Shown piece after piece: positions 1-12,165 of a DNA stretch of 12,165 nt. The stretch comes from Capsulimonadales bacterium (GTDB lineage: Bacteria; Armatimonadota; Armatimonadia; Armatimonadales; Armatimonadaceae), in NCBI GenBank assembly GCA_033762295.1, contig JANRLW010000088.1:1-12165 (forward strand), read 5' to 3'. The translations under genes and the position numbers were made by a program. How positions within the stretch are numbered: the stretch's first letter is position 1; each line of letters starts with the position of its first letter. Under the pieces are notes generated by a model, which was not told the origin of the DNA, did not search any database, and saw nothing but the letters and a program-made list of their open reading frames with translations.

Positions 1-909
1 GACGACCGGGCGGCGGTGCTGGAAAAGCTTCCCCGCGACACGGGGACGGGGGCCGGGACGAACATTCGCCGACCGCACCATGAGGTGCTGAAGTTGATCG
101 CGCGGGAGCCGGATCGACCCGCCTATATCGTCGTTCTGTCGGACAGTTATAACGACGAACCGAAGTCCGAAGATCCGGCTTATCGGGATTATTTGCGATA
201 CTACGTGCCGGGGGGCCAGCTCTCCAAGTACCCGAATACGTCGGAAAACGCGGATTACGAGCGGCTTCTGCGGGAACTGGTCGTGTCGGGCAAGGTGCGG
301 CAGTTCGGCATCGGGGTCGGTTTCAACGAAATGGGGCGTCCGATCGAGCGGCTGCCACAGTCCGCTCCGAAGCCGGAACCCGTTCCCACGGTCGCGCCGG
401 TTTCAGCCGTATCCAAACCGGCGGAAAATCCGTCTCCGTTATTGTGGATCGTCCTCGGTCTGGCCGGAATCGCGGCGGTGGGCGGCCTGGTGTTTTTCCT
501 GTCTGCGGCGAAACCGATGGCTCTCCGAATCAGCAACGGGCCAAAGGAGATGAAGGATTTTCAGGTGCGTGCGGGGCAGCCGGTGCGCATCGGCGGCGAG
601 GGCGCACGGTTCGCTCCGGATGCCTTTCCGATCGCGGAACTGAAATCGGCGGTCGTCGTGATTCGTCCGGGGCGCGGCGGATTGACGGCGGCTCCGGCCT
701 CTCAGGCGATGCCGGGCGGAAAATCGGATGCCGCCGCGCCTCCGCCGGGCAACGAAACATCGAAGGTCCGTGTCCTATTAAACGGACTTCCTCTGGAAGC
801 CGAATCTCCGGTCGGGTATGGCGACGAATTGCGTATTGCGATAACGCCGGCCGCCGGGGGAGTGGCCAGGGAGTACCGTCTCAAACTGACCGATCCGAAA
901 AACATCTAA
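1..909 (+). CDS. vWA domain (C-terminal half) - Pro-rich linker - single TM helix - degenerate FHA-like domain protein; 5'-truncated
   Basis: Frame is open from base 1 (GAC GAC CGG GCG GCG GTG...), so the GTG at 16 is probably internal. vWA-like motifs in the correct order: GTNI (55-66), YIVVLSD (to 144), RQFGIGVG. The MIDAS DxSxS motif would lie upstream of the window. Linker PKPEPVPTVAPV, TM LLWIVLGLAGIAAVGGLVFFLS (~439-504), then FHA-like pattern VRIGG...VLLNGLPL...PVGYGDELRI. Stop TAA at 907-909. Confidence 0.75.
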   Translation, partial: DDRAAVLEKLPRDTGTGAGTNIRRPHHEVLKLIAREPDRPAYIVVLSDSYNDEPKSEDPAYRDYLRYYVPGGQLSKYPNTSENADYERLLRELVVSGKVRQFGIGVGFNEMGRPIERLPQSAPKPEPVPTVAPVSAVSKPAENPSPLLWIVLGLAGIAAVGGLVFFLSAAKPMALRISNGPKEMKDFQVRAGQPVRIGGEGARFAPDAFPIAELKSAVVVIRPGRGGLTAAPASQAMPGGKSDAAAPPPGNETSKVRVLLNGLPLEAESPVGYGDELRIAITPAAGGVAREYRLKLTDPKNI

Positions 910-963
910 AATATCCGAGCCGCCACGATGCCTGACCGTTACACAACTACAAGGAAACCATTG

Positions 964-1650
964 GTGACAAATTATCGGGGACGACGACACGTCGTCATTT
1001 TTCTTTTACTGACGTTACTTTCCTTTGCTTCCTTGCGAAACGCGCAGGCTCAGGAACCGAAACTGACACAGAATTCCGGATCGGAACTGCAGAATGCGTA
1101 TCAGGATAAAAAACCGTACACGCTTCGCCTGCTGTTTACCGATCCTTCCGGCGATACGGTCAGTAAATCCAAGGCGATTTTCGTCGATGAGGGACCGTCG
1201 GGGAACCTTCGGATTCCCGCGACCAACATCACCGGGGATGTGCGGACGGGCGCGGTCATCGAGTGGCGGGTGAACGGATTCGAGCCCGGTTCGCACAAGG
1301 GGTATTTCGAGGTAAGTCGGCTCAACGATACCGCGCCGATCCGGTATCCGGCCGAACCGACCGAGTTCTATTCGTTCGTGGTTGAAAACCTGACGACGAA
1401 ATGGATCATCTTCGGTGTGGGGCTTTTGATCGGCCTGACGGCGATTCCGGCGATCGTGTTCTTCCTCTCGCGTTCCATCAATCCGCGGGGCGACTCCTCG
1501 CAGGCGGCGCGTCTGGGCCTTTTCTTCGGGATTCTGGCGATCTGTGTGCTGTTCATCGGGTTGTTTCTGAGCATTTACGGATGGCTGGTCTTCGCGATCA
1601 TCGTCCTGGCGTTTCTGGCGTTGCCTCTCCTGTTCACACGCCGTCGGTAA
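964..1650 (+). CDS. Exported beta-rich (Ig-like?) domain protein with signal peptide and three C-terminal TM helices
   Basis: ORF track gives 928..1650. SD-like AAGGA at 951-955 precedes in-frame TTG 961 and GTG 964. Starting there gives a clean signal peptide (MTNYRGRRH-VVIFLLLTLLSFASL-RNAQA|QEPK). Three hydrophobic segments: WIIFGVGLLIGLTAIPAIVFFL, LGLFFGILAICVLFIGLFLSIY, WLVFAIIVLAFLALPLLF, ending in RRR. Confidence 0.8.
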   Translation: MTNYRGRRHVVIFLLLTLLSFASLRNAQAQEPKLTQNSGSELQNAYQDKKPYTLRLLFTDPSGDTVSKSKAIFVDEGPSGNLRIPATNITGDVRTGAVIEWRVNGFEPGSHKGYFEVSRLNDTAPIRYPAEPTEFYSFVVENLTTKWIIFGVGLLIGLTAIPAIVFFLSRSINPRGDSSQAARLGLFFGILAICVLFIGLFLSIYGWLVFAIIVLAFLALPLLFTRRR

Positions 1651-1681
1651 CTCGCCATTTTCGTCGTTGTCGCTATGCGTG

Positions 1682-1698
1682 TACAATGGATGGCGGAG
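1682..1698 (+). promoter_or_regulatory. Candidate -10 element (TACAAT) and RBS (GGAG) upstream of the first paralogue
   Basis: TACAAT at 1682-1687 is a 5/6 match to TATAAT in a GC-rich background. GGAG at 1695-1698 lies 9 nt before ATG 1708. No convincing -35 element. Confidence 0.3.
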
Positions 1699-1707
1699 AA
1701 CATTGAA

Positions 1708-2763
1708 ATGGAGATTTTTCCCGTTGATCTCGGTCCGGAATGGCAGGTGGCACTGATTCAGGCGCGGATGCTGGCGTCCTCGGCGCCCGGATCGCGTCGC
1801 GGTCCGCGAACGTCCGTGACCGCCGGCGACACAGGAACCCGTTTCGGTGCGCTCGGTCGATTCTGGACCGGCGGAGCCGGACTTCCCGACGGCAGGGCGG
1901 ACGACGTTCTCCGATCGATGGGCGGCGTCATCGGCGGGTCCGTCGGCGGGTTGGGCGGAGGGAGCATCGGGTTTCTTGCCCCGGCAATCGTCGGGGGGAC
2001 ACAGGGCCAACCGATCTTCGGCGCTATTTTCGGCCTGCTGGGATTGACGATGCTGACGGCGGGAATCGTCATGCCGCGAGCGTTGCTCCGGCACTGGGCA
2101 CGGACGGCAATCACGCCGAACGAAGTCGAGGCGATGCTGGACGGCCGGGAAGCGGGACCCGAACGGGCCTATCTGACGCTCCTTCGGGATGCGTTGCGCC
2201 AGGAGATTCCCGACCAGGCGGCGACCGAAATACGAAAGGCGTTGCGCGCCCTCGGGGAGGCGATCCACCGACTGCCTGCGGTGCCGGAGACCGGGGAGAC
2301 GGATGCTCGACAACTGCGTGAGAACGCGGAGAGTGCCGAGCGCGCGGCGTCGGAGGAACCGGACCCGGTGACGGCGGCCTCGCTTCGACGTCAGGCCGAG
2401 GCGCTGCTTCGTTCGGCGCGGGCGGCGGAACAGTCCGCTCTGGTGCTTCGCCGGAACGCCGTCCTGCGCAGGGAGATCGCCGTGCAGACGGAGGCGCTTC
2501 GACTAGGATTGGCCGCCCTTTATGCGGGGGCTGGCGATATGGCCGAGTTGAGTCGTCTGGCGGAGCAGGTGCGCGGTGTCGCGGCCGAAGCCGGCGCGGT
2601 AGCGGACGCCCGCGCGGAACTGGAGGAGTTTCTGACGAACGAATCAACGCCGATGGCGGTCAACCCGTCGGTGGAAACAGCAAGAGGCGGTAGGTCGCCG
2701 AGCGTGGCCGAGACCGAGGGCGCGACCGTCGCCTCCGTCGCCACCGTCACCGGCCGAAGGTAA
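1708..2763 (+). CDS. Membrane-anchored helical/coiled-coil protein, paralogue A (Gly-rich hydrophobic hairpin)
   Basis: ORF track gives 1675..2763. Start placed at ATG 1708 because MEIFPVDLG aligns with the N-termini of the next two genes and has a GGAG RBS; ATG 1675 and 1690 are alternatives. Gly-rich segment MGGVIGGSVGGLGGGSIGFLAPAIVGG, TM IFGAIFGLLGLTMLTAGIVMP, then an Ala/Arg/Glu-rich helical C-terminal half. Confidence 0.8.
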   Translation: MEIFPVDLGPEWQVALIQARMLASSAPGSRRGPRTSVTAGDTGTRFGALGRFWTGGAGLPDGRADDVLRSMGGVIGGSVGGLGGGSIGFLAPAIVGGTQGQPIFGAIFGLLGLTMLTAGIVMPRALLRHWARTAITPNEVEAMLDGREAGPERAYLTLLRDALRQEIPDQAATEIRKALRALGEAIHRLPAVPETGETDARQLRENAESAERAASEEPDPVTAASLRRQAEALLRSARAAEQSALVLRRNAVLRREIAVQTEALRLGLAALYAGAGDMAELSRLAEQVRGVAAEAGAVADARAELEEFLTNESTPMAVNPSVETARGGRSPSVAETEGATVASVATVTGRR

Positions 2764-2769
2764 AGGAAC

Positions 2770-3756
2770 ATGGTGATCCGTCCGGGGGACCTGGGAAGCG
2801 TCTGGCATATCGCTCTGGTGCGTTATCGCGCCCTGGGGCACGCTCGCTTTTCGCCGCCGGCCGAAATCGGTCGACTCGGACGCATCTGGGCATCCGGGCT
2901 CGGGCTTTCGGAAGAGGTCGCGGCGTCCACCCTGCCCATGATGGTCGATACCGCCATGCCACTGGTCGCGGGCGGCGGAACGGCAATCTCGCTGGCCGCT
3001 CTTGCCGTGGCCTTTCTGAGCGGGTTTCGACCGGACGTGACGTCGGGCTGTCTGCTCGGGGCCGCGATCGGTCTGTTCCTCTGCCTGGTGGTGTTGCCCC
3101 GTCGGAACTTCCGCCGTCTTCATCTCGCGCCGGTACGCTGGGATGAACTGGAAGCGTTAAAAGGGGCGCAGCCGACCCGCACGAAGGAGGAGGCGTCGGT
3201 TCCCGCTCGAAAACGGTCGGCTCTCCTTCGCGTATCGGAAGGCCTGCGCGGCGCGGCGCCACGACTGCCGGGGGATGACCTGGAACGTGAGTTTCTTCGT
3301 CTCCTGCAGGACGTGACCGATCTGCGGGGTTTCGATTCGACGACCGAGGCCGCCGTCCGGTCGGTGGTCAACGCGCTCGGCGAGGCGGTCGGCAGTCTGC
3401 CGGACCCGATGCACCAGAATGACGTTCCTTCGACGGCGACCGATGCGGTATCGGAAAACGACCGTCGCCTGGCACGACGTCTGCAGGTTTTACGTAATGA
3501 TTTGATGGCGGAACTCGCCGCCGTCCGTGGACTGTTGCCGGCGCTGACCGGGGAGGCGACGGGAACGACGGGAACGACGGGAACGGAACGTCTGGCCGCC
3601 GTATCGACGACCGCTCGTCAGGTGACTTCCGAGGCGAAGGCGGTCTTGGCCGCGCGTCAGGATCTGGCGCCGGAGTTGTATCCGCGACTGGCGGCCGTCT
3701 ACGGACATCGGGCCGAACCGGAAACGGAACGAACGGCGCGAATCGAGCCGCGCTAG
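2770..3756 (+). CDS. Membrane-anchored helical/coiled-coil protein, paralogue B
   Basis: RBS AAGGA directly after the previous stop (TAAAGGAACATG), 6-bp gap. Two TM segments (AISLAALAVAFLSG; GCLLGAAIGLFLCLVVLP). Shares blocks EREFLRLLQD...ALGEAVGSLP and EAKAVLAARQDL with its neighbours. Confidence 0.8.
   Translation: MVIRPGDLGSVWHIALVRYRALGHARFSPPAEIGRLGRIWASGLGLSEEVAASTLPMMVDTAMPLVAGGGTAISLAALAVAFLSGFRPDVTSGCLLGAAIGLFLCLVVLPRRNFRRLHLAPVRWDELEALKGAQPTRTKEEASVPARKRSALLRVSEGLRGAAPRLPGDDLEREFLRLLQDVTDLRGFDSTTEAAVRSVVNALGEAVGSLPDPMHQNDVPSTATDAVSENDRRLARRLQVLRNDLMAELAAVRGLLPALTGEATGTTGTTGTERLAAVSTTARQVTSEAKAVLAARQDLAPELYPRLAAVYGHRAEPETERTARIEPR
3557..3585 (+). repeat. In-frame 9-bp tandem repeat (GACGGGAAC)x3 encoding TGT-TGT-TGT
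   Basis: Perfect copies at 3558-3566, 3567-3575 and 3576-3584. Confidence 0.9.
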
Positions 3757-3784
3757 CCAGTCACAGGAATAGGTCAGGGAAGCG

Positions 3785-4903
3785 ATGCAATTGACGTTGC
3801 GGGATATCGGCGAGGAACGTTTTGTCACGGTGCTCGGGCGGTCCGTCCGGGCGATACAGGGAGCGAACAACGCCCACGCGGCGACGCCCAACGCCACCCT
3901 GCATCCGCCGTTTCCGGGAAAACTGAAACGCGCGCCGCGTCGGCTGGCGCGGTTCTGGACCCGGAAACTCGACCTTCCGGAGGAAGCGGCAACGCGTCTC
4001 GCCGACCAGATCTGGACGGGACCGTACGGAGCGAGCCTGAAAGCCTTCTCCTTCGTTTTCCTTTTTCATATGGCGCTCGCCGCTTTCCTGATGGGAATCG
4101 GCACGGGCGTCGGAGTTTTTATCGGCGTATTTTTCCTGTTTCTGTGGACCAGTATCATTGGCGGCATGGTCTGGGCGCCCAGGGTCCAGTTGACCCAGAT
4201 TGCCGAAAGAGATCTGACGGTCGAGGATATCGAGGCGTTGCTGCCGAACGCGCGAGGTCGCCTGGAACGGCAGTATTTCGGTCTGGTTCTGGATGCGCTC
4301 CGAACCGAGATTCCGTCGGAGTCCGCGAAAAGCGATATTCGGGCGGCGCTCCGGCATCTGGGCGACGCGATCGCGCGGCTTCCGTCCGATCCGGTGGCGA
4401 CGCCGGATGCGGATATCCTGCGTCGGGAGGCGCAAGGTCTGCGAATGCAGGCGAACCGGGAGACGGACGCCTTCGTAGAATCCTCATTGCTGCGTCAGGC
4501 TGAGATGCTGGAGCAGCGGGCGACGCTGGCGGCGCAGAACGGACGGTCCGCCCGACGAATCGCGATGCTGCGACGGGAGGCGCGTACTCAGATGGACAGC
4601 CTGCGTTCGGTTTTGGTCGGGTTTCAGCAGGCGCAGCAGTCGGATGTCGTGGCGATCAGCCAGCTTTCGTCGGCGTTGCAGCGGGTGAGCGGTGAAGCGA
4701 AAGCGGTCGCTCTGGCCCGCCAGGAACTGGAAAACGAGGAACTGGAACGGATGTACGGCGCGCCGCTGCCGGTTCCGAATCCGGTGACGACCCCGGCGGT
4801 ACAACCGGTCCGGCCAAATAATCCCGGTCCCACCGGGCCAATGCCTGCGCCGCCCGCCTCCGGAAACCGGGGGCCCTGGTGGCGGAACAATAACGGCGTG
4901 TAA
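3785..4903 (+). CDS. Membrane-anchored helical/coiled-coil protein, paralogue C, with Pro-rich tail ending GPWWRNNNGV
   Basis: AGGGA upstream of ATG, 28-bp gap from the previous gene. TM hairpin FSFVFLFHMALAAFLMGIGTGVGVFIGVFFLFLWTSIIGGMVW. Shared blocks ERQYFGLVLDALRTEIP...LGDAIARLP and EAKAVALARQELE. Confidence 0.82.
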   Translation: MQLTLRDIGEERFVTVLGRSVRAIQGANNAHAATPNATLHPPFPGKLKRAPRRLARFWTRKLDLPEEAATRLADQIWTGPYGASLKAFSFVFLFHMALAAFLMGIGTGVGVFIGVFFLFLWTSIIGGMVWAPRVQLTQIAERDLTVEDIEALLPNARGRLERQYFGLVLDALRTEIPSESAKSDIRAALRHLGDAIARLPSDPVATPDADILRREAQGLRMQANRETDAFVESSLLRQAEMLEQRATLAAQNGRSARRIAMLRREARTQMDSLRSVLVGFQQAQQSDVVAISQLSSALQRVSGEAKAVALARQELENEELERMYGAPLPVPNPVTTPAVQPVRPNNPGPTGPMPAPPASGNRGPWWRNNNGV

Positions 4904-4912
4904 AGGCGAACA

Positions 4913-4946
4913 GGCGCTTCGGCGCAAAGGGGCGGCGCTACGGCGC
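4913..4946 (+). repeat. Twin 13-bp direct repeat GGCGCT(T/A)CGGCGC, each copy a 4-bp stem with a cUNCGg tetraloop
   Basis: GGCGCTTCGGCGC at 4913-4925 and GGCGCTACGGCGC at 4934-4946; 12/13 identical, 21-bp period, in the 60-bp spacer before the tubulin-like gene. Confidence 0.7.
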
Positions 4947-4963
4947 GAACGAAACAGAAAACC

Positions 4964-7900
4964 ATGGCAGAAAATAACGGCAACACCGTCAACAACGCAC
5001 CGACGACCGTCGGACCGGCACAGAACGCGCAGGCGCGGGAAGAACAGCGTCTGCGCGGCGTTTCCCGTTCCCTGCTGATTGCCGTCGGGGGAACCGGTCA
5101 TAAGGTTCTGCTCGACGTCCGGCAGCGACTTTTGCAGAAGTACGGTTCTCTGGACAAACTCCCGATCGTCGGCTTCCTGCTGATCGATACGGACCAGGCG
5201 ATCTTCGGCAAGAACCCGAACTACAGCGATGCCGCCAACCTGGACAACGCCGACAAGATCCATACCAGCGTTCACGGGGTCGAACAACTCCGGCGGAACC
5301 TGCGAGAGTATCCGCATCTGCGAGACTGGCTGGACCCGAAGACGCTTTCGGGCGATATCCAGCAGGGGGCGGGTGCGGTCCGTGCGCGAGGACGTCTGTC
5401 GTTCTTCTGGAACTACGATGTCATCGCCAAGCGGATCGAGGAGGAGATCGCCGAAATCACCAAAGATTCGAGCAAGGCGATCGCCATCCGCAACGGTCTG
5501 CAGGTTTCGGAAGGAATCACCGTCTACATCGTCGGTTCGTTGCTGGGTGGGACCGGTTCGGGGATGTTTCTGGACATGGCCTACGCGGTCAAGGACCTGC
5601 TGAAATCCCAGCGGATGCTGGAAACGGTGGGTATCTTTACGATCCCACCGAACTCGGCGGCGGTCGCGGTCGATAACCGGCCGAACGCCTACGCCTCTCT
5701 TCTCGAATTGAATCACTACACCGACCCGTCGACGACCTTTACCGCGCAGTACAAACCCGATCAACCGGGCATCGAGAACGCCGACCCGCCGTTCCGGTAC
5801 ACCTATCTGGTCGACACATCGTCGCCGTCGGCGAACCTGGGATCGGTCGATAAACTGGTGGAGATGATCGGGCATTCGATCTTCCTGGACCTGACCAGCG
5901 AGTTCCAGCGGCAGAAGAAATCGAACCGGGATAACTTCGACCAGTTCCTAACCAATCCGGACGATCTCGGCTGTCCGCAGAACTACCTTTCGATGGGACT
6001 CGCGGCCATTCATTTCCCGAAGGACAAAGTGTTGCACGCCTGCGCCTCCCGTCTGGCGCACCAGATCCTGATGCGCTGGACCGAGCCGCTTTCGCGCGTG
6101 ACGAATGTCGGCGCATTCACCGAGGGCGAACTGGCGCGTCTGGGTCTGGACCCGGACGAGATTCGTCGCCAGTTGACGATCGCCAGCGCCGAAACCGGCG
6201 ACCTGCTCCGGGATGCGGCGATGCAGTTCTGGAGCGGCGTCAACCGCGAGTACGAAACGAACTATCCGGGTCATAACCGGGTGGTCGAACTGCTGAACAC
6301 ACGGCAGGCCGACCTGCAGGCGAAGTACGTCGACAACGACCCGAACCCCGATCCGCTCGGGAAGCGTCGCGCGAACCTGGGCGAATTCATCTGGCAGATG
6401 GTCGAGAACCTGCGTGCGGTCATTCCGGCGAAGGAAGCGGCGCTGCGATCGTTCATTTCCGAGTGTGTCAACGACCCGAACCGTCGGCACGGTGTCGCCC
6501 GCGCCTTCCTGGATCAGTGCAGCGAGCGGTTCCGCAACTATGCCACCGCGCTGGCCGCCGATCGGGACGCCGCCAAGGAAACGCTGGTGCCGCTTTCCGA
6601 ACAGCGGGACGGGCAACTGGGGGAGATTACCCGACTGGCCGGGGATGTCGTTCTCGGAATGGTCATGGGCGGCGCGAAACGACGCTCGATCGATGAAAAG
6701 AAGGACGCCTATCTGCGGTTCGCCCGGCAGTGGGACACCGCGTTTCTGGATATTCGCGCCAACGACCTCGCCATCTACTTCTACACCGGAATGCAGAGCG
6801 TTCTCGATGCGCTGAAAGAGGAGATGGACGCCTATATCGAGCGGATGCGCCAACTGGAAACGTTCTACCGTCGGGAGGAGAATCTGGCGATCGAGAATCC
6901 GGTGGACGTCAACGGGGCCATCCTGTTCGACCGGGGACGGCGGGTGGAATCCGAGAACGGAACGGCCACTTACGTCGACGGCGATATCGACCGGCGGTAT
7001 ACGGCCTATGTCGGCGACGGAATGAACCCGGGCAACACGACCGTGAACACGACCTCGTCGGAAATCCTGGCCGAAGTCGGGACGGCCGGAAACATCTACG
7101 GTTTGCGGGACGCCGACATCAACCATATCAAGTCCGTGGTCGCCGCCCGGACCCGCGCCGTCTTCCGGGCGGTCGAGAACGAGTCCGTGATCGAGAAGTT
7201 TTTTGAGAAGTACGGCTACGGGACGGATCGCTCGATTGAGGAGATGCGCCGGGTCTTCGGCCTTTCTCAGCCGTTCATTCACCTGCAGCAGAACGCGCCG
7301 AACTACAAGCACCATCAGAACAAGGAACAGACCATCGTCGGAAAGATTTACGGGGCGCAGGGACGTACCGAATCCGAACAGCGTTTCCTGGCGATGTTGA
7401 AGGACACGGTGCAGGGTATTCGGGACGGTCAGATTTCCAACTCCAACGAACAGCATCAGGTGCTGTTCCTGCGTGAGCGAGCGGCGTTCCCGCTGCGATT
7501 GCTGGAAGGAATGGACTCCTATCGGTTCGCCTACGAGCAGGCGCGTTCGCAGGGCGCCTCGGTGAACCCGATCCATACGCGCAAGGATGTCAAGGAGTGG
7601 GTCCGGATCGATCCGCCGTCATTCGTCGAACAGATGGAATCGTGGGAAACCTTCTGTGTCGGCTGGGCGTCCGGCGTCATCACCGAAGAGCGGGATGTGA
7701 AGTATACGGCGACCGGCGCGCGGGAGACGATCCATTTCCTGGCAACCTACAAGGATCGCTTCGGAATGTCGAAAACGGACCGTCTGGGAACGTTCGTCGC
7801 GATCACGGGTGACATGGCGCGCCTGATGCGCGAATCGGAGACGCCGCAGCAACAGGAAGGACGTCCGCCGCTGGAGGCCCGCGAGATCATTCTGATTCTG

Positions 7901-8368
7901 TGTGACAACCCGGGCATTCGCCTGCACCTGAACCAGGGCATCGAGAACCGCCTGCACGAATTGGGGGTCTTTGAGATGGGAAATACGCTGGTTCAGCACG
8001 TGAACGCACAGGAGAAGGTGCTGGCCGCGCCGATTTACCGTCCGTACCAGAAGATGATCTCCGAGTACCTGGAGAAGATCAACTGGAACCCGAACGGACC
8101 GACGGTTCGTGCGGTGGCTCCGGTAGCGACGGCCCCCGCTCCGGTGCCGGTCGGAACCGGCGCGAACGGCAAGACGTCTCTGGCGGCCCCGGCGACCGCT
8201 CCGGCGGTCGCCGGTCCGGAACCGCCTCCTGCCCTGCCGGCTCCGGCGCCTCCCGGCGTGAAAAGCGTCCGCGAACGGCTGGCCGACCTGAAAGCCCTCT
8301 TCGAAGACGGTCTTCTGGACGACGAGGAGTTCAAACAGCGTAAGGCGGAGATTCTGAAAGAGATTTAG
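4964..8368 (+). CDS. Tubulin/FtsZ-like GTPase (Tubulin_2 / FtsZl1-type) with long helical region, Pro/Ala linker and C-terminal SHOCT-like domain
   Basis: Tubulin-fold loops in order: LLIAVGGTG, FLLIDTD, GAGAVRARGR, signature GSLLGGTGSG (GGTGSG at 5546-5563), NAYASLLEL, PPFRYTYLV. About 700 further aa, largely helical. C-terminus VRERLADLKALFEDGLLDDEEFKQRKAEIL (from 8267) fits the SHOCT pattern L..LK.L...G.I..EEF...K..IL. Confidence 0.92.
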   Translation: MAENNGNTVNNAPTTVGPAQNAQAREEQRLRGVSRSLLIAVGGTGHKVLLDVRQRLLQKYGSLDKLPIVGFLLIDTDQAIFGKNPNYSDAANLDNADKIHTSVHGVEQLRRNLREYPHLRDWLDPKTLSGDIQQGAGAVRARGRLSFFWNYDVIAKRIEEEIAEITKDSSKAIAIRNGLQVSEGITVYIVGSLLGGTGSGMFLDMAYAVKDLLKSQRMLETVGIFTIPPNSAAVAVDNRPNAYASLLELNHYTDPSTTFTAQYKPDQPGIENADPPFRYTYLVDTSSPSANLGSVDKLVEMIGHSIFLDLTSEFQRQKKSNRDNFDQFLTNPDDLGCPQNYLSMGLAAIHFPKDKVLHACASRLAHQILMRWTEPLSRVTNVGAFTEGELARLGLDPDEIRRQLTIASAETGDLLRDAAMQFWSGVNREYETNYPGHNRVVELLNTRQADLQAKYVDNDPNPDPLGKRRANLGEFIWQMVENLRAVIPAKEAALRSFISECVNDPNRRHGVARAFLDQCSERFRNYATALAADRDAAKETLVPLSEQRDGQLGEITRLAGDVVLGMVMGGAKRRSIDEKKDAYLRFARQWDTAFLDIRANDLAIYFYTGMQSVLDALKEEMDAYIERMRQLETFYRREENLAIENPVDVNGAILFDRGRRVESENGTATYVDGDIDRRYTAYVGDGMNPGNTTVNTTSSEILAEVGTAGNIYGLRDADINHIKSVVAARTRAVFRAVENESVIEKFFEKYGYGTDRSIEEMRRVFGLSQPFIHLQQNAPNYKHHQNKEQTIVGKIYGAQGRTESEQRFLAMLKDTVQGIRDGQISNSNEQHQVLFLRERAAFPLRLLEGMDSYRFAYEQARSQGASVNPIHTRKDVKEWVRIDPPSFVEQMESWETFCVGWASGVITEERDVKYTATGARETIHFLATYKDRFGMSKTDRLGTFVAITGDMARLMRESETPQQQEGRPPLEAREIILILCDNPGIRLHLNQGIENRLHELGVFEMGNTLVQHVNAQEKVLAAPIYRPYQKMISEYLEKINWNPNGPTVRAVAPVATAPAPVPVGTGANGKTSLAAPATAPAVAGPEPPPALPAPAPPGVKSVRERLADLKALFEDGLLDDEEFKQRKAEILKEI

Positions 8369-8388
8369 GCGTTCCGAGGTTTCGTTCG

Positions 8389-8425
8389 ACACCGGGCAGA
8401 CCGCGCGCTGCCCGGTGTTTTTGTT
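8389..8425 (+). terminator. Rho-independent terminator of the + strand cluster
   Basis: Perfect 11-bp stem ACACCGGGCAG (8389-8399) / CTGCCCGGTGT (8408-8418), 8-nt loop, followed by TTTTGTT; begins 20 nt after the TAG. There is no matching U-tract for the - strand. Confidence 0.85.
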
Positions 8426-8438
8426 CGGACGCTTCGCG

Positions 8439-9704
8439 CTACGGCGTGGGGAGGGTCCAGAGAGTCAGGTTTTCCGCGCCTTTGACCAGCAGACGGTTGC
8501 CTGAGATGGCCGGGGACGCCCACATCGCCGAGTCGGCGACCGGGTAGCGGGCGGTTTCCGTCAGGGTGTTGCCGGTCTTTTTGTAGACGAACAGATCGCC
8601 ACCGGCCGTAAACGCCAGCAGGGACGGCCCGACATCGTACAGGCTGACATTTTCGCCTTTGTTGCCCTCGCAGACCCAGGCGCTTTTTCCGGTGGCGGTA
8701 TCCAGTACGGTTATCTGGCCGCGCCGTTTTTCGTTGCAGAGATAGAGTTGGTTGCCGGAAAGGACCGGCGAGGAGGTGGAGAGGGTAACGTCCAGGGTTT
8801 CCCAGACCTTATCCGCCGTCCATCGGTTGCCGTTGGCGCGGATACGTAACGCCATGGTCGGACGCTGATTTCCGCCGACGAACACGGTATCGCCGAGAAC
8901 GACCGGGGTGATCGAGTTGTGGTTGAACATATTCCGGCGGTTCCCCAAACTCCAGAGGATCGCGCCGTTTTCCGGATCGATGCCAACGAACTGGTTGTGG
9001 GTCGCCGTGATGATCTGCCGCTTTCCGCCGATGCGTGCCAGTACGGGCGAGGCATAGGCCGGTCCCTCGGTGTCCGTTCTGCGAACCTCCTTCCCGGTAT
9101 CCTTATCCATCGCGATAAACGCTCCCTCGTTGTCATGGCCGACATGCAGATAGATGATTCGGCCATCGATCAGCGGCGACAGGGAGGCTCCGCAGATCGG
9201 CATCGGGATTTTGAACTGGGTCGAAAAGTCTCGTCGCCAGAGCGGTTTTCCGGTGGCGGCATCGAGGCAGGAGAAGAGTCCGTTGACCCCGGTGGTGTAG
9301 AGTTTCCCCTGGTGCCAGAGGGGAGTGGAACGGGGCGCTTTCCCCAGACGTTGTGCGGGAAAGATGACGCTGTCAAAGGGTGCGTCGACCACATCCTCCC
9401 AGACGGTGCGGCCATTCTTCAGATCGATGCAGAGCGTATGCTCCTTGTTCTCGCGGCGAACGAGCACGAACGCGCGGTCACCGACGATGATGGGCGAGGA
9501 GTGTCCCTGTCCGACGGCGACGCTCCATCTTTTCACCAGCGTTTTCGGCCAGACCGCAGGATTTTTGAAATGTGGCACGTGGCCGTCGCGGTACGGGCCG
9601 CGCCACTGCGCCCAGTCGTCGGCCAGTGCCACCGTTGTCGCCGTCAGGTGGGTTGCCGTCAAAAGGGCGATGACGCCGCACCGGGTCGATATCATTTTCC
9701 GCAT
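8439..9704 (-). CDS. Secreted PQQ-binding-like beta-propeller repeat protein (BamB-like 'DWPQWRGP' family)
   Basis: ORF track gives 8439..9809. Start moved to ATG 9704 (AAGGA RBS 8 nt upstream; signal peptide MRKMISTRCGVIALLTATHLTATTVALA|DDWAQWRGPYRDG). Repeated propeller motifs: GHSSPII, CIDLKNGRTVW, CLDAATGKPLW, AMDKDTGKEV, YASPV, GIDPENGAILW, LDTATGKSAW, WASPAIS. Confidence 0.88.
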   Translation of the reverse strand: MRKMISTRCGVIALLTATHLTATTVALADDWAQWRGPYRDGHVPHFKNPAVWPKTLVKRWSVAVGQGHSSPIIVGDRAFVLVRRENKEHTLCIDLKNGRTVWEDVVDAPFDSVIFPAQRLGKAPRSTPLWHQGKLYTTGVNGLFSCLDAATGKPLWRRDFSTQFKIPMPICGASLSPLIDGRIIYLHVGHDNEGAFIAMDKDTGKEVRRTDTEGPAYASPVLARIGGKRQIITATHNQFVGIDPENGAILWSLGNRRNMFNHNSITPVVLGDTVFVGGNQRPTMALRIRANGNRWTADKVWETLDVTLSTSSPVLSGNQLYLCNEKRRGQITVLDTATGKSAWVCEGNKGENVSLYDVGPSLLAFTAGGDLFVYKKTGNTLTETARYPVADSAMWASPAISGNRLLVKGAENLTLWTLPTP

Positions 9705-9742
9705 CTTCGTTGTCCTTGCCTGCTGTGGGGTAATGCCACCGT

Positions 9743-9768
9743 AACAGAGCGAGGGCCGGAAGGGTTCC
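9743..9768 (-). promoter_or_regulatory. Candidate ECF-sigma promoter GGAAC-N18-GTT for the beta-propeller gene
   Basis: Minus strand reads GGAAC (9768-9764), 18 nt (CCTTCCGGCCCTCGCTCT), then GTT (9745-9743), about 40 nt upstream of ATG 9704. Confidence 0.3.
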
Positions 9769-9815
9769 CGGTTTGGCGGTTCCCGTGGCGTTCGAAACGG
9801 ATGGACCAAAACGGT

Positions 9816-12165
9816 TTAAAATACGTGGTTCCCCAGGCGGGCGATTCGTGGCTCGCCGAGGACCGACGAATCCCAGGGGATCGAGTACGATATGCCGGGC
9901 AGCAGATCGAAGCAGTTGTCCGCCACGGGACGATCGCCGTTCTCATCGAGGCAGACTCCCCAGCAAAAAACCTCACTTTTCAAGGTCAGCGTTCCGTCTT
10001 CGACGGTCAGGACGATTTGCGGATCACGGACCAGAGGCAGGTCGCCGAACCGTGAGAAAAACGCCCGATGCTGGGCGATCATGCGATCGGACTCGTCATA
10101 GAGAAGGAGAAACGCGCCAAAATCGGGATGATCCGTAAAATACTCCCGACCCCAACCCGCCCCGACGGATCGAACCGAATGGGCGGGCAGGTTAAGCTGG
10201 TAGCCGTCGGTTTCAACCAGCGAACCGTCGGCGGCAAAGGTGCCGAACAGAACGCGACCGTGCCGTTCACTGTCGGAATCGTTGATGGCGAAGTAGTCAA
10301 CCCCGGTATCCGGGTGCGCGGCGGCGATGGCGGTGATTGGGGCGAAGGCGCGGCGGACCGGGTGGTAGGCGAGACGCTTGCGGCGGTAGTAATCGACAAT
10401 GGTCCAATCGTGTGTCGACGGCCAGGACGAGTTGTACATCCAGAAGATCGCCGCCGCCGACGAGAACATTCGCCTTCGGTAGTTGGCGATGTATTCCGTG
10501 ATGCCTTCGGCTTGCAGCAGGCCGGAGATAAAGGCGTACTCTTCCATCTCCATCGCCAGCGGATCGAGTCCGGTCCAGAGTTGGACGGTCTGATAGGCAT
10601 GCCCTAATCGCCCCGGAAGGACATCATGGATGGCGAACGGGTTATCGTGATGCTCCCAGGTGGCAGAGAGCAGTTTTCGCTCCGATCCGGGCAGAAAGTC
10701 CCTGAGTGTCGCCGGGGTAGAGCATCCGAGGACGCCACCTTCGTTAGGGAATCGATCGACGAAGGTCCGGTACTCCCACCAGTCCGCGCCACCGTGCATC
10801 TGCAGGCTTACCCTCCAGGGGTGCTGGTCGCCGATGGTTGGGTCACGGGGGCTTTTGTAGTCCGGCGAGTACGGCGACGAGATCCAGTAGAAGCAGTGTG
10901 GCGCTTCCTGTGCGGCGATCTGCGGCAGATCATGGTGGAACATTGCGTAGTGCGGGTGCGTGCGGTAAGCGTCGTCGTAGCCCCAGTGCCAGTCGCCCTC
11001 TTCGATCTCGTTGTTGCCGCACCAGACGACCAGCGAGGGGTGGTGTGCCATTTCTCGCATCGCCCAGCGCACTTCCGTCCGCACCTCCCGCACAAACTCC
11101 GGGTAGTCACCGGGATATTTCGAGCAGGCAAAAAGCAGGTCGTGCCAGACCAGGAGACCCTGCCGGTCGCAGTAGTCCAGAAAAGCGGGATCGGCGTAGA
11201 TCCCGCCGCCCCAGATGCGGAGCAGGTTGAAGTTGGCCCCGACGGCAAGATCGATCAGTTCACGGTAGCGTTCGGGGGTGACCGTGGAGTGAAGCATATC
11301 CGCCGGAACCCAGTTGCCGCCCTTGCAGAAGATCGGGCGGTTGTTGATCTTGAGCGTGAAATACTTGCCCTCGACCGGGTGCGGTGATTGGTCCACCTCG
11401 ACCCGGCGTATACCCAATTGGCATGAGCCAATCAGGCGATGCCCCTCTATGTCGATGATCGCTTGCACGGAATACTGGAACGGTGCACCATGACCAAGGG
11501 GCCACCATAGTTGGGGATTGTCTATTTTCAGAGAAACCGCATGGCGCGACTCACCGGACGGCAGGGTTATCTCCTGTGTGGCGCTATCGCCCGTAGTGAG
11601 CACGGTTAGATGGAGTTGCGCCGAAACAGGGGACGCGGCGGGATTGTGAACGGTCAGTGTGGCATGGACATCCGCCGTGGTCAGATCACGGGACGGAATC
11701 GCATAGAATTGCGTTTGTTCCAGGGTAGGTTTTTCGCCCCAGTACAGGAGGACATCGCCGAGAATGCCGACATTGAGCAGACGTTGTTGCCAGTCCCAGC
11801 CACGTTGCCACTGTCCGCGCCGGTGCCAGTGTATCTTGGTCAGGCGGGCCTGTGGAGAATCGCGGTACTCTGCTCCCGGCTTTTCCGCCACATCAAATAA
11901 CCCGGCATCGAGGAGCACGACCAGCGTGTTTTCGCCATCGGGACGCAGATGTTTGGTGACTTCAAAACGCGCGGGACGGTGAGCGTTGGCATGACGACCG
12001 ACTTCCTGACCGTTCAGATAGACGACAGCACACATCTCCAGACGCTGGAAGGTTATCCACGTTGGCGTGCCGACGACATAGTCGGCGGGCAGGGTGAAGG
12101 TGCGACGGTACGCCCAGTAGTACTCCTCGACCCAGCGTGCCTTGAGTGAGTTCAGACCATAGCGG
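9816..12165 (-). CDS. Glycoside hydrolase family 2, beta-mannosidase-like; 5'-truncated by the window edge
   Basis: Frame stays open beyond the track start at 12035 to the edge (RYGLNSLKARWVEEYYWAYRRTFTLP...TFQRLEMCAVVYLNG). Motifs: GWDW, LWWPLGHGAP, IFCKGGNWVPAD, NFNLLRIWGGGIY, WHDLLFACSKYP, HHPSLVVWCGNNE (acid/base Glu, 11007-11024), RFPNEGG (likely nucleophile, 10734-10754), FWMYNSSWP, DNCFDLLPG. Confidence 0.9.
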   Translation of the reverse strand, partial: RYGLNSLKARWVEEYYWAYRRTFTLPADYVVGTPTWITFQRLEMCAVVYLNGQEVGRHANAHRPARFEVTKHLRPDGENTLVVLLDAGLFDVAEKPGAEYRDSPQARLTKIHWHRRGQWQRGWDWQQRLLNVGILGDVLLYWGEKPTLEQTQFYAIPSRDLTTADVHATLTVHNPAASPVSAQLHLTVLTTGDSATQEITLPSGESRHAVSLKIDNPQLWWPLGHGAPFQYSVQAIIDIEGHRLIGSCQLGIRRVEVDQSPHPVEGKYFTLKINNRPIFCKGGNWVPADMLHSTVTPERYRELIDLAVGANFNLLRIWGGGIYADPAFLDYCDRQGLLVWHDLLFACSKYPGDYPEFVREVRTEVRWAMREMAHHPSLVVWCGNNEIEEGDWHWGYDDAYRTHPHYAMFHHDLPQIAAQEAPHCFYWISSPYSPDYKSPRDPTIGDQHPWRVSLQMHGGADWWEYRTFVDRFPNEGGVLGCSTPATLRDFLPGSERKLLSATWEHHDNPFAIHDVLPGRLGHAYQTVQLWTGLDPLAMEMEEYAFISGLLQAEGITEYIANYRRRMFSSAAAIFWMYNSSWPSTHDWTIVDYYRRKRLAYHPVRRAFAPITAIAAAHPDTGVDYFAINDSDSERHGRVLFGTFAADGSLVETDGYQLNLPAHSVRSVGAGWGREYFTDHPDFGAFLLLYDESDRMIAQHRAFFSRFGDLPLVRDPQIVLTVEDGTLTLKSEVFCWGVCLDENGDRPVADNCFDLLPGISYSIPWDSSVLGEPRIARLGNHVF

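Follow-up and report, generated by a model that had tools for sequence, protein, structure and literature searches.

The stretch of DNA analyzed here (12,165 nucleotides, hereafter the window) is the entire contig JANRLW010000088.1 (C88) within the 5.16-Mb, 132-contig assembly GCA_033762295.1 of a Capsulimonadales bacterium (Armatimonadota), and it carries the distal two thirds of a cluster of nine co-oriented genes (~12 kb) that ends with the gene for a giant tubulin-like GTPase of the FtsZl1/Tubulin_2 family. The order in the cluster is: a zinc-ribbon/PQQ-propeller protein, a tail-anchored kinase-like protein, a signal peptide-vWA-transmembrane-FHA-fold protein whose vWA domain bears the metal ion-dependent adhesion site (MIDAS) motif (g1), an exported protein with a β-rich domain and three transmembrane segments (g2, the 3TM protein), three paralogous helical proteins with a transmembrane hairpin (g3–g5, the triplet) and a protein with a Tubulin_2 domain, a linker and a SHOCT-like tail (g6). 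The nearest named relatives of g6, the largest gene of the window, come from metagenome-assembled genomes (MAGs) labelled Armatimonadota, Armatimonadaceae or Armatimonas. Its general architecture is known from the predicted vWA/FtsZl1 operons that Makarova and Koonin described (2010, Biol Direct 5:33; PMC2875224), and the cluster is a new, lineage-specific variant of them.

The six open reading frames (ORFs) of the window, g1–g6, all lie on the plus strand with intergenic gaps of 18, 24, 6, 28 and 60 bp. All six have homologues in other genomes and exhibit the codon-position pattern of real genes, with GC content high at the third position (GC3) and lowest at the second (GC2), in which the overlapping antisense ORFs differ; the same codon-position filter was used to choose ORFs in high-GC loci. 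A terminator-like hairpin (12-bp stem with 8 GC pairs, then the T run TTTTGTT) is found 20 bp 3' of the g6 stop codon, between convergent genes; its stem is the longest among the listed sites, and terminator-like sites across the window as a whole are at chance level (12 found vs 11.4 expected). The hydropathy scan revealed one transmembrane segment in g1, a signal-like segment and 2–3 further ones in g2, a hydrophobic hairpin region in g3–g5 and none in g6. No sequencing run, of RNA or otherwise, was listed in a search with positions 900–8400 of the window. The first-pass annotation of the window, made from the letters alone, had described six co-oriented genes with gaps of 6–60 bp closed by one terminator, five of them encoding proteins with transmembrane segments and the sixth a tubulin-fold GTPase, and our analyses agree with it on each of these points. 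A kinase gene, which it suggested to look for further upstream, was found on another contig of the same genome, C122, located by tblastn searches with orthologues and then by contig overlap: the reverse complement of C122 ends in 20 bases identical to the start of the window, in frame. C122 supplies the signal peptide and the MIDAS half of the vWA protein, the kinase-like gene and the zinc-ribbon/PQQ-propeller gene, beyond which lies a divergent phosphoglucose isomerase gene. The coordinates are collected in Table 1.

Table 1. Features of the window and of the upstream contig (positions are those of the window unless another locus is named; aa, amino acids; AF2, AlphaFold2)
Feature	Position	Strand	Basis or remark
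g1, C-terminal 302 aa of the signal peptide-vWA(MIDAS)-transmembrane-FHA-fold protein	1-909, open at 5' end	+	ORF; C122 overlap; family alignment A2
Single transmembrane segment of g1	439-495	+	residues 147-165 of the window part; hydropathy 2.44
Predicted cytoplasmic FHA-fold domain of g1	511-906	+	132-residue tail; AF2 model, Foldseek
g2, 240-aa exported protein	928-1650	+	signal-like segment, ~120-aa β-rich ectodomain, 2-3 C-terminal transmembrane segments (hydropathy)
g3, triplet paralogue, clade A	1675-2763	+	likely start Met12 at 1708
g4, triplet paralogue, clade B	2770-3756	+	~35-aa insertion
g5, triplet paralogue, clade C	3785-4903	+	Trp-rich C-terminal tail
g6, FtsZl1/Tubulin_2 protein, 1134 aa	4964-8368	+	ORF, Pfam, hydropathy; no transmembrane segment
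Tubulin_2 GTPase domain of g6	5072-6070	+	residues 37-369; GGTG and GGTGSGMFLD
SHOCT-like C-terminal bi-helical tail of g6	8273-8356	+	residues 1104-1131; after Pro/Ala-rich linker
Terminator-like hairpin	8388-8419	+	intrinsic-terminator-like
Secreted PQQ_2 propeller	8439-9809	minus	Pfam
GH2 glycosidase gene	9816-12164	minus	Pfam
Kinase-like protein with C-terminal transmembrane anchor	L074:465-1988 (C122)	minus	507-aa ORF, true start probably later; Pkinase

The Tubulin_2 profile (PF13809) matches g6 over positions 1–355 of 356 (226.6 bits vs a cut-off of 27, E 7.1e-67). The GGTG (residues 42–45) and GGTGSGMFLD (residues 195–204) motifs are present and most of their positions are invariant in the family alignment A5; the 85% consensus over 17 aligned homologues, which take in distant sequences from Planctomycetota, Chloroflexota and cyanobacteria, comprises GGTG, DTD, GA..R..GRL, GGTGSGMFLD and N.YA..EL. 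Since the GTP motifs reach this level of consensus across the 17 homologues, the predicted nucleotide site of g6 is under selection, with its motifs intact. Among PDB sequences, the g6 profile matched neither tubulin nor FtsZ at E <= 1, and residues ~465–637 gave weak hits to coiled-coil chains (EmrA 0.077, Rabaptin 0.18). The genome has a separate gene for a canonical FtsZ (FtsZ_C 1.7e-34), and therefore g6 is not the division FtsZ.

FtsZ carries a C-terminal linker and a C-terminal peptide, which binds the membrane tethers FtsA, ZipA or SepF. The g6 protein resembles it in that the GTPase domain is followed by a flexible linker rich in Pro and Ala and then by a short, conserved terminal module, and the neighbouring membrane proteins could serve as tethers; unlike FtsZ, it lacks FtsZ_C, is three times longer and has only putative tethers. 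A further difference, described in PMC2875224, is that FtsZl1 proteins have no recognisable T7/H7 polymerisation elements. The terminal module had been annotated as a SHOCT domain and is here called SHOCT-like: in g6 the 28-position SHOCT profile (PF09851) scores 25.3 bits, just below its cut-off of 27. Every complete orthologue from Armatimonadales has the pattern ERLxxLKxLLxxGLITxxEFxxRKAxILxEV, as do two of the three homologues from cyanobacteria, and the tail of one of the latter (L040) scores 34.1 bits, above the cut-off. The GvpG match over the same region (21.7 bits vs a cut-off of 30.6) was taken as mere helical similarity. SHOCT-like domains have been predicted to anchor other domains at the inner leaflet of the membrane (as stated in PMC11237479), and a self-association test of SHOCT, as given in PMC3581485, was negative.

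The window part of g1 holds only the tail of the vWA domain (VWA_CoxE, E 0.043). The first ~140 aa, encoded on C122, include a signal-peptide-like segment and the sequence FLIMDVSGSM and match VWA_2 with 26.3 bits, just below the cut-off of 27, which is exceeded by full-length orthologues (40.9, 32.9 and 30.5 bits). In the family alignment A2 the D and S of DxSxS, the MIDAS motif as given in PMC2875224, are at least 90% conserved. Since a signal peptide precedes the vWA domain and one transmembrane segment follows it, the domain is predicted to face outward, as the first-pass annotation had assumed; topology predictions put both the vWA domain and the g2 ectodomain outside the cell.

The cytoplasmic tail of g1, previously called FHA-like from the sequence, does have an FHA fold in the prediction, without a Pfam match and without the canonical phosphothreonine-binding residues. 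Pfam FHA (PF00498) gives no hit in g1, and one of 13 family members matches at E 0.05. The search of the tail profile against PDB sequences returned sub-threshold rows only, five of the nine being FHA-domain proteins (EssC 0.13, the best profile match, KIF13B 0.22, kinesin, YukB and KIF1B). The AF2 model of the tail (predicted local distance difference test score, pLDDT, 86.6; predicted TM-score, pTM, 0.79) retrieved FHA domains in every Foldseek row shown except rank 48 (a spliceosome chain), the best being KIF1A (E 4.4e-4), followed by SLMAP, Rad53 FHA1, Rv0020c and GarA, with probability 1.00 and TM-scores of 0.37–0.71 for the FHA rows. Canonical FHA domains bind phosphothreonine with the residues Gly-Arg, Ser-x-x-His and Asn-Gly. 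In alignments A2 and A3 the g1 tail exhibits LGGxG in place of Gly-Arg, with no Arg, has no S..H and retains just (H)NG, and it is probably an FHA fold that does not bind phosphothreonine. In this respect it resembles EssC/YukB (PDB 5fwh and 9qks), phospho-independent proteins in which the FHA fold also lies on the cytoplasmic side of a membrane protein and lacks the canonical Arg/Ser/His. Unlike EssC/YukB, g1 has no FtsK-type ATPase or type VII secretion context, and its FHA fold is fused to an extracellular vWA domain. A complex prediction for g6 residues 370–1134 (A5) with the FHA-fold domain (A3), run without controls, gave 0.00 and 0.00 vs a mark of 0.32, which speaks neither for nor against binding.

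The kinase-like protein matches Pkinase (PF00069) with 35.3 bits (cut-off 31.7), the match spanning just profile positions 54–142 of 263. In protein kinases the catalytic loop carries the HRD aspartate. All six aligned orthologues have H[A/G][G/A]...N in place of HRD...N, i.e. the catalytic Asp is gone, and the upstream Lys, the Asn and the Asp of DF/Y/W-x are invariant in the same six sequences. Judging from these motifs, the protein is a predicted pseudokinase, which may still bind nucleotides. Because the kinase lacks its catalytic Asp and the FHA fold its canonical phosphothreonine-binding residues, classical phospho-signalling seems unlikely. A weak match of the kinase-like protein to TCAD9 (E 0.042) is below the cut-off. 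Between the kinase-like part and the tail anchor lies one β-rich module (two in the sister family) with the conserved pattern NEG..P...WLN...SAARL.PG.Y, and the propeller protein opens with a segment resembling it. The latter protein (571 aa) matches PQQ_2 (92.7 bits) and, below the cut-off, the DZR double zinc ribbon (17.9 bits), and has no hydrophobic segment. Among the orthologous loci, the kinase gene lies 5' of the vWA gene in eight genomes (G003, G008, G035, G028, G036, G029, G030 and G001) and the propeller gene in G003, G008 and locus L031, being divergently placed in G010; the order pqq-dzr, kinase, vWA is repeated in G003 and G008, and no kinase match was recorded at L031. The FtsZl1 protein of a distant Armatimonadota vWA-3TM-tubulin locus (L038:2643-6341, plus strand) carries a C-terminal DZR (30 bits) instead of SHOCT. 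This placement may point to domain shuffling, and in that way to the propeller protein as a part of the system.

The g2 protein shows no family match in Pfam or NCBIfam. Its gene adjoins the vWA gene in 8 loci of one survey and in further loci, and in the ESM Atlas it falls into an Armatimonadota cluster of its own (0.96), with Ig-like/CopC-like sandwiches as structural neighbours of the ectodomain, which we take as a lead only.

The three following proteins are paralogues, as the first-pass annotation had recognised: BLASTP relates g3 to g5 (7e-34, 37% identity over 265 residues), g3 to g4 (7e-10) and g4 to g5 (2e-6). Alignment A1 of 22 members reveals a common plan, with an N-terminal M-E-I-x-P-x-D-L-G motif, a variable linker, LGRLGRxW, a hydrophobic hairpin and a helical domain of ~200 residues; the conserved N-terminal motif places the likely start of g3 at Met12. 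The AF2 model of g3 is all-helical (pLDDT 83.1, pTM 0.74), with long helices at residues 231–283 and 289–324. None of the searches identified a relative with a name: the triplet proteins match nothing in Pfam, NCBIfam or PADLOC, the 22 members have no Pfam family in common, the profile finds nothing below E 0.2 among PDB sequences, and Foldseek finds nothing for the g3 model at E <= 0.001. The g3 rows that Foldseek does list (ABC transporter transmembrane domains, F-BAR and tripartite α-pore-forming toxin components; E 0.3–2, TM-scores < 0.25) were rejected as helical noise. The triplet family is thus unrecognised and without a current profile, in line with the first-pass annotation, which had been unable to place it. 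An exhaustive profile search of 1.84 billion representatives revealed 290 triplet proteins at E <= 0.001, 223 of them at E <= 1e-30, with lengths of 210–386 aa among the 150 matches listed; no longer, fused forms were found at E <= 1e-5 among 7999 candidates of 743–2120 aa, which is weak evidence.

In a maximum-likelihood tree built from 38 triplet-family rows, after removal of identical entries and of hits spanning < 250 profile positions, g5 falls into an 8-row clade (support 100/98), g4 into a 5-row clade (96/92) and g3 into an 8-row clade (91/96, not starred). Each of the three clades includes members from other genera, so in this tree the triplet comes out as three old clades and not as a recent tandem duplication. 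A fourth clade (G003, G014, L030 and solo genes) is unrepresented in the genome studied here. Genera retain different combinations, A-B-C in the cluster described here and A-X-B in G003, which fits either hetero-oligomers or specialised adaptors.

A homologue of g6 was found in 38 of 41 related genomes, including 24/24 of its own family (58–77% identity) and 13/16 of the sister family (55–60%). Most genomes have one full-length gene, the extra matches being mainly split genes, short SHOCT-like tails elsewhere and distant paralogues. Judged from the identity bands and the presence pattern, the tubulin gene apparently descends vertically. In a sample of 151 Armatimonadota genomes, the triplet profile is found in 16 and in three families (f1 6/6, f2 4/7, f7 5/7, other families 0), the FHA-fold tail in 15 (f1 6/6, f2 6/7, f12 1/1, f13 1/1) and Tubulin_2 in 58, from many families; Tubulin_2 is present in 16/16 genomes with the triplet and in 15/15 with the FHA-fold tail, a co-occurrence that is descriptive and not a statistical test, as the genomes are kin.

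Gene order was surveyed at 22 distinct orthologous tubulin loci (hits > 1000 bits, duplicates of the same gene merged), one of them too short to judge. At 13 of the 22, from two families of the order, the tubulin gene is immediately preceded by one to three co-oriented triplet genes, and the full order vWA-3TM-triplet(1-3)-tubulin recurs in G003, G035, G028, G036, at L031 and in several named MAGs. The first-pass annotation had made the linkage of the triplet to Tubulin_2 genes in other genomes the test of its proposal; the linkage is there, but it is not obligatory, as eight loci are unlinked and solo triplet genes occur. Some genomes split the cluster. In G001, argininosuccinate lyase (argH)-trip-trip-tubulin lies on one contig and kinase-vWA-3TM on another. 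G006, G008, G009 and G010 have vWA-3TM-trip(1-4) blocks away from the tubulin gene, which is found there beside unrelated or uncharacterised genes, e.g. ornithine carbamoyltransferase (G010) or response regulators (G006, G020). In G030 the triplet slot holds an IS200-like Y1 transposase (Y1_Tnp 1.2e-24; L085:4502-4975, minus strand) and in G029 an unrelated 509-aa ORF with multiple transmembrane segments and no Pfam hit (L086:3988-5517, minus strand). G006, G010 and the three f7 genomes examined carry solo triplet genes, with unrelated neighbours such as genes for a hydrolase, an oxidoreductase or a glycosyltransferase. Outside this group, the distant Armatimonadota locus mentioned above retains vWA-3TM-tubulin, and in three cyanobacterial loci a vWA-transmembrane-FHA-fold gene lies immediately 5' of Tubulin_2, with neither 3TM nor triplet genes. 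Because of the split patterns and the two-gene cyanobacterial loci, comparative analysis identifies the vWA-FHA-tail protein and the tubulin as the oldest and tightest pair, and the 3TM and triplet proteins as later additions specific to Armatimonadota.

Several details of these neighborhoods are worth recording. One cyanobacterial locus (L040:6080-15681) encodes a divergent Dynamin_N GTPase (814 aa), the vWA-transmembrane-FHA-fold protein (371 aa), Tubulin_2-SHOCT (1101 aa) and a protein of 792 aa that has a GUN4-like domain. In two genera, genes of the arginine pathway are found just upstream, ornithine carbamoyltransferase directly 5' of the tubulin gene in G010 (L015:13178-14611) and argininosuccinate lyase 5' of the trip-trip-tubulin block in G001 (L032:5968-7344); they may mark an ancestral chromosomal position. 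In G008, a gene for a 718-aa NACHT-domain protein with an unusually low GC3 of 0.51 (L082:3387-5543, minus strand) lies directly 3' of the propeller-kinase-vWA-3TM-trip-trip block, in the place that the tubulin gene occupies in other genomes, and the G008 tubulin gene is found on a separate 5-kb contig. The PQQ_2 propeller and GH2 genes 3' of the cluster in the window were excluded as members of the system, since they are not kept beside the tubulin gene elsewhere. In two other genomes, family-level relatives of this PQQ_2 propeller (1e-32 and 1e-25; L076:13610-14848 and L083:5484-6839) and solo triplet genes are 3–4 kb apart, a proximity that may be due to chance, as PQQ propellers recur among the examined loci.

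How does this cluster relate to the systems described so far? Makarova and Koonin reported predicted FtsZl1 operons with genes for vWA proteins, protein kinases, GTPases, OmpA-like proteins and the lineage-specific membrane families B1–B9, described FtsZl1 as an N-terminal tubulin-like domain followed by an extended coiled coil and an α-helical C-terminal domain, and proposed a membrane-associated complex or membrane remodelling as the function (PMC2875224). The literature context given in the first-pass annotation, which placed FtsZl1 genes with vWA, FHA, kinase and GTPase genes, is thus right, and to its question of whether the architecture had already been described, the answer is twofold: the combination of vWA, kinase, membrane proteins and FtsZl1 has been, and the variant itself is new. 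Like the published operons, the cluster encodes a giant protein whose N-terminal tubulin-like GTPase domain falls into the same Pfam family and a vWA protein that combines a signal peptide and a transmembrane segment with an intact MIDAS-type motif, together with a member of the protein kinase family and several lineage-specific membrane proteins outside known families. Unlike them, it shows no diverged P-loop GTPase and no OmpA-like gene, its kinase lacks the catalytic Asp, its vWA protein has an FHA-fold cytoplasmic tail, its tubulin ends with a linker and a SHOCT-like tail, and its tubulin gene is found order-wide, mostly as a single full-length copy. The 3TM and triplet partners were found here solely in Armatimonadota, and they are set apart from B1–B9 by listing, not by sequence: supplement 6 of PMC2875224 names a single representative locus tag for each of B1–B9, and the organisms that can be recognised from these tags belong to other phyla. 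A 2023 study (PMC9871819), in the part that deals with Tubulin_2 proteins, continues to regard them as divergent 'FtsZ-like' sequences whose history is unclear. In our literature searches, with subscription journals outside their coverage, neither the Armatimonadota variant nor the triplet family nor the pairing of a pseudokinase with an FHA fold was found described.

Taken together, we read the cluster as a constitutive envelope- or membrane-organising module that works alongside canonical FtsZ, a reading to which, together with the mechanism outlined below, we give an even chance. An envelope role is favoured over defence because the tubulin gene is lineage-wide and has housekeeping genes around it, and because none of the six window proteins matches a defence model. 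In the proposed mechanism, the membrane proteins would assemble into an inner-membrane platform. Its outer face, made of the MIDAS-vWA domain and the g2 sandwich, would bind a ligand or an envelope component via the metal-dependent vWA site, and its inner face would consist of the FHA-fold tail of g1, the helical triplet domains and the tail-anchored pseudokinase, possibly joined by the cytoplasmic propeller protein. The inner face would recruit the soluble FtsZl1 GTPase, which would assemble there in a GTP-dependent manner, with the linker and the SHOCT tail of g6 acting like the C-terminal tether of FtsZ and binding the platform or the inner leaflet. Phosphorylation-independent adaptor roles would fall to the kinase-like and FHA-fold parts.

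A bolder version, which we regard as possible but doubtful, is that FtsZl1 in Armatimonadales forms a constitutive second tubulin-family cytoskeleton, wired to the cell surface by a dedicated transmembrane complex in an integrin-like manner. The connection would run from the MIDAS-vWA receptor through one transmembrane helix to the fossil kinase and FHA adaptors and the phylum-only family with the transmembrane hairpin, and from there to the GTPase, so that envelope events could position, or be positioned by, a cytoplasmic polymer.

Several observations weigh against an envelope-organising module of this kind. According to the analysis in PMC2875224, FtsZl1 proteins are without recognisable T6-H7 elements and perhaps form no filaments; both the assembly of FtsZl1 and its recruitment to the membrane are inferred here. 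The linkage is loose, as 8 of the 21 informative tubulin loci have no triplet, 3TM or vWA gene upstream (with >= 1.5 kb available in each of the eight), G029 and G030 keep kinase-vWA-3TM-tubulin without any triplet gene, and the genomes of family f7 lack the FHA-tail gene and have their solo triplet genes next to unrelated ones. Vertical descent is judged from identity bands and presence. In addition, homologous neighborhoods of tubulin and vWA genes, as well as inactive kinases, have been read as parts of conflict systems in the sections of PMC7159879 that deal with them.

This last interpretation is the main rival of ours. In an anti-phage or abortive conflict system of the type described by Kaur, Burroughs, Iyer and Aravind (2020), the vWA protein or the inactive kinase would sense an invader and the tubulin would multimerise as a threshold or effector scaffold. 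The GAP1-N2 GTPase-centric systems described in that work (Kaur et al. 2020, eLife 9:e52696; PMC7159879, section 29) pair tubulin-coiled-coil proteins with a transmembrane protein bearing an extracellular vWA domain, and our cluster is like them in having a tubulin-superfamily protein with a putatively helical or coiled-coil C-terminal part, a transmembrane protein with an extracellular vWA domain and further membrane-proximal parts. The catalytically disrupted kinase, whose gene follows the propeller gene, fits a theme of related vWA systems: most kinase domains of the vWA-MoxR systems are reported to have disrupted catalytic residues and to be related to kinases fused to β-propellers (PMC7159879, section 14). 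The weak TCAD9 match, the NACHT protein downstream of the block in G008 and the variable slot 5' of the tubulin gene point the same way. On the other hand, Pfam revealed none of the defining components, the DO-GTPase(s)/TRAFAC GTPases with their zinc ribbons, GAP1 or a protein with FNIII repeats, in the nine genes and the next two on C122 or in the orthologous loci scanned, and MoxR, HSP70 or recognisable effector genes were likewise not seen in the cluster or in the examined orthologous loci. None of the six window proteins, which the scan covered, matches a defence model of PADLOC-DB 2.0 at E <= 0.1, and NCBIfam gives nothing for g1–g6 beyond a chance-level BimA row (E 0.016, 14 bits vs a cut-off of 600). 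The GAP1-N2 theme is described as restricted to Firmicutes and Actinobacteria (PMC7159879), while here the tubulin gene is lineage-wide and not patchy, mostly in one full-length copy, its identity declines with taxonomic distance, and housekeeping genes flank the loci. Defence islands are usually patchy. A conflict function, one of the roles that the first-pass annotation had put forward, thus appears unlikely, being disfavoured by the lineage-wide, mostly single-gene distribution and by the absence of PADLOC hits.

The loose linkage raises the question whether the tubulin gene and the vWA-3TM-triplet block have independent functions, the triplet being a partner of the vWA and 3TM proteins, or standing alone, and not acting with the GTPase. 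Besides the informative loci without these genes upstream, this is suggested by the blocks that G006, G009 and G010 have at a great distance from the tubulin gene, by the solo triplet genes with their unrelated neighbours and by family f7, in which triplet and Tubulin_2 genes are on different contigs or far apart on one contig. Nevertheless, adjacency in 13 of the 22 loci, across two families of the order, G001 with its trip-trip-tubulin block and no vWA or 3TM gene nearby, the vWA-FHA-tail gene that adjoins Tubulin_2-SHOCT in cyanobacteria too, and the co-occurrence in 16/16 and 15/15 genomes vs a background of 58/151 (with the kinship noted above) all argue for a connection, and we consider independence of the two parts improbable. 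Or perhaps the triplet proteins could be membrane-remodelling polymers of the ESCRT-III/PspA type with a transmembrane hairpin of their own, nucleated or remodelled by the GTPase for vesiculation or membrane repair? Membrane remodelling is what Makarova and Koonin proposed for FtsZl1 operons (PMC2875224), PspM (0.84, a lead only) comes nearest among the ESM Atlas clusters to which a Pfam family is assigned, and VIA-align, which compared the g3 model with 48,161 chains in alignments of ~80–120 residues, aligned g3 residues ~196–286 to Snf7 (Z 8.6 and 8.2), Asgard ESCRT-IIIB (7.9), Shrub (7.9) and PspA (7.2 and 7.0). The same comparison gave Z 8.7 for bMERB domains, however, and values below ~13 are common for helical hairpins according to the tool's own note. 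Foldseek gave no match at E <= 0.001, hhalign of A1 with the PspA alignment A6 from the same genomes returned a probability of 0.14% (E 0.42), none of the 22 triplet members hits PspA or Snf7 in Pfam or shares a Pfam family, and genuine PspA genes are found elsewhere in these genomes. We regard a relationship of this type as very unlikely.

FtsZl1 is the most divergent branch of the tubulin/FtsZ superfamily, and we found no experimental study of FtsZl1 proteins in the searchable literature since their description in 2010. Lineage-specific FtsZl1-vWA operons are already expected by specialists, and the variant described here is an unusually clean and lineage-wide one: with mostly one full-length gene per genome and without the GTPase or chaperone extras of other versions, its loss-of-function phenotypes should be interpretable. 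The natural splits and the two-gene cyanobacterial form point to candidate contacts between the FHA-fold tail and the tubulin and between the triplet and the tubulin, and the paired loss of the kinase Asp and of the phosphate-binding residues of the FHA fold suggests a signalling pair turned into a scaffold. The variant also defines two protein families, that of the triplet and that of the 3TM protein, for which no profile exists at present. If the cluster did serve in defence, it would be an unusually conserved defence system; a link from the cell surface to a tubulin, if true, would change the view of bacterial cytoskeletons.

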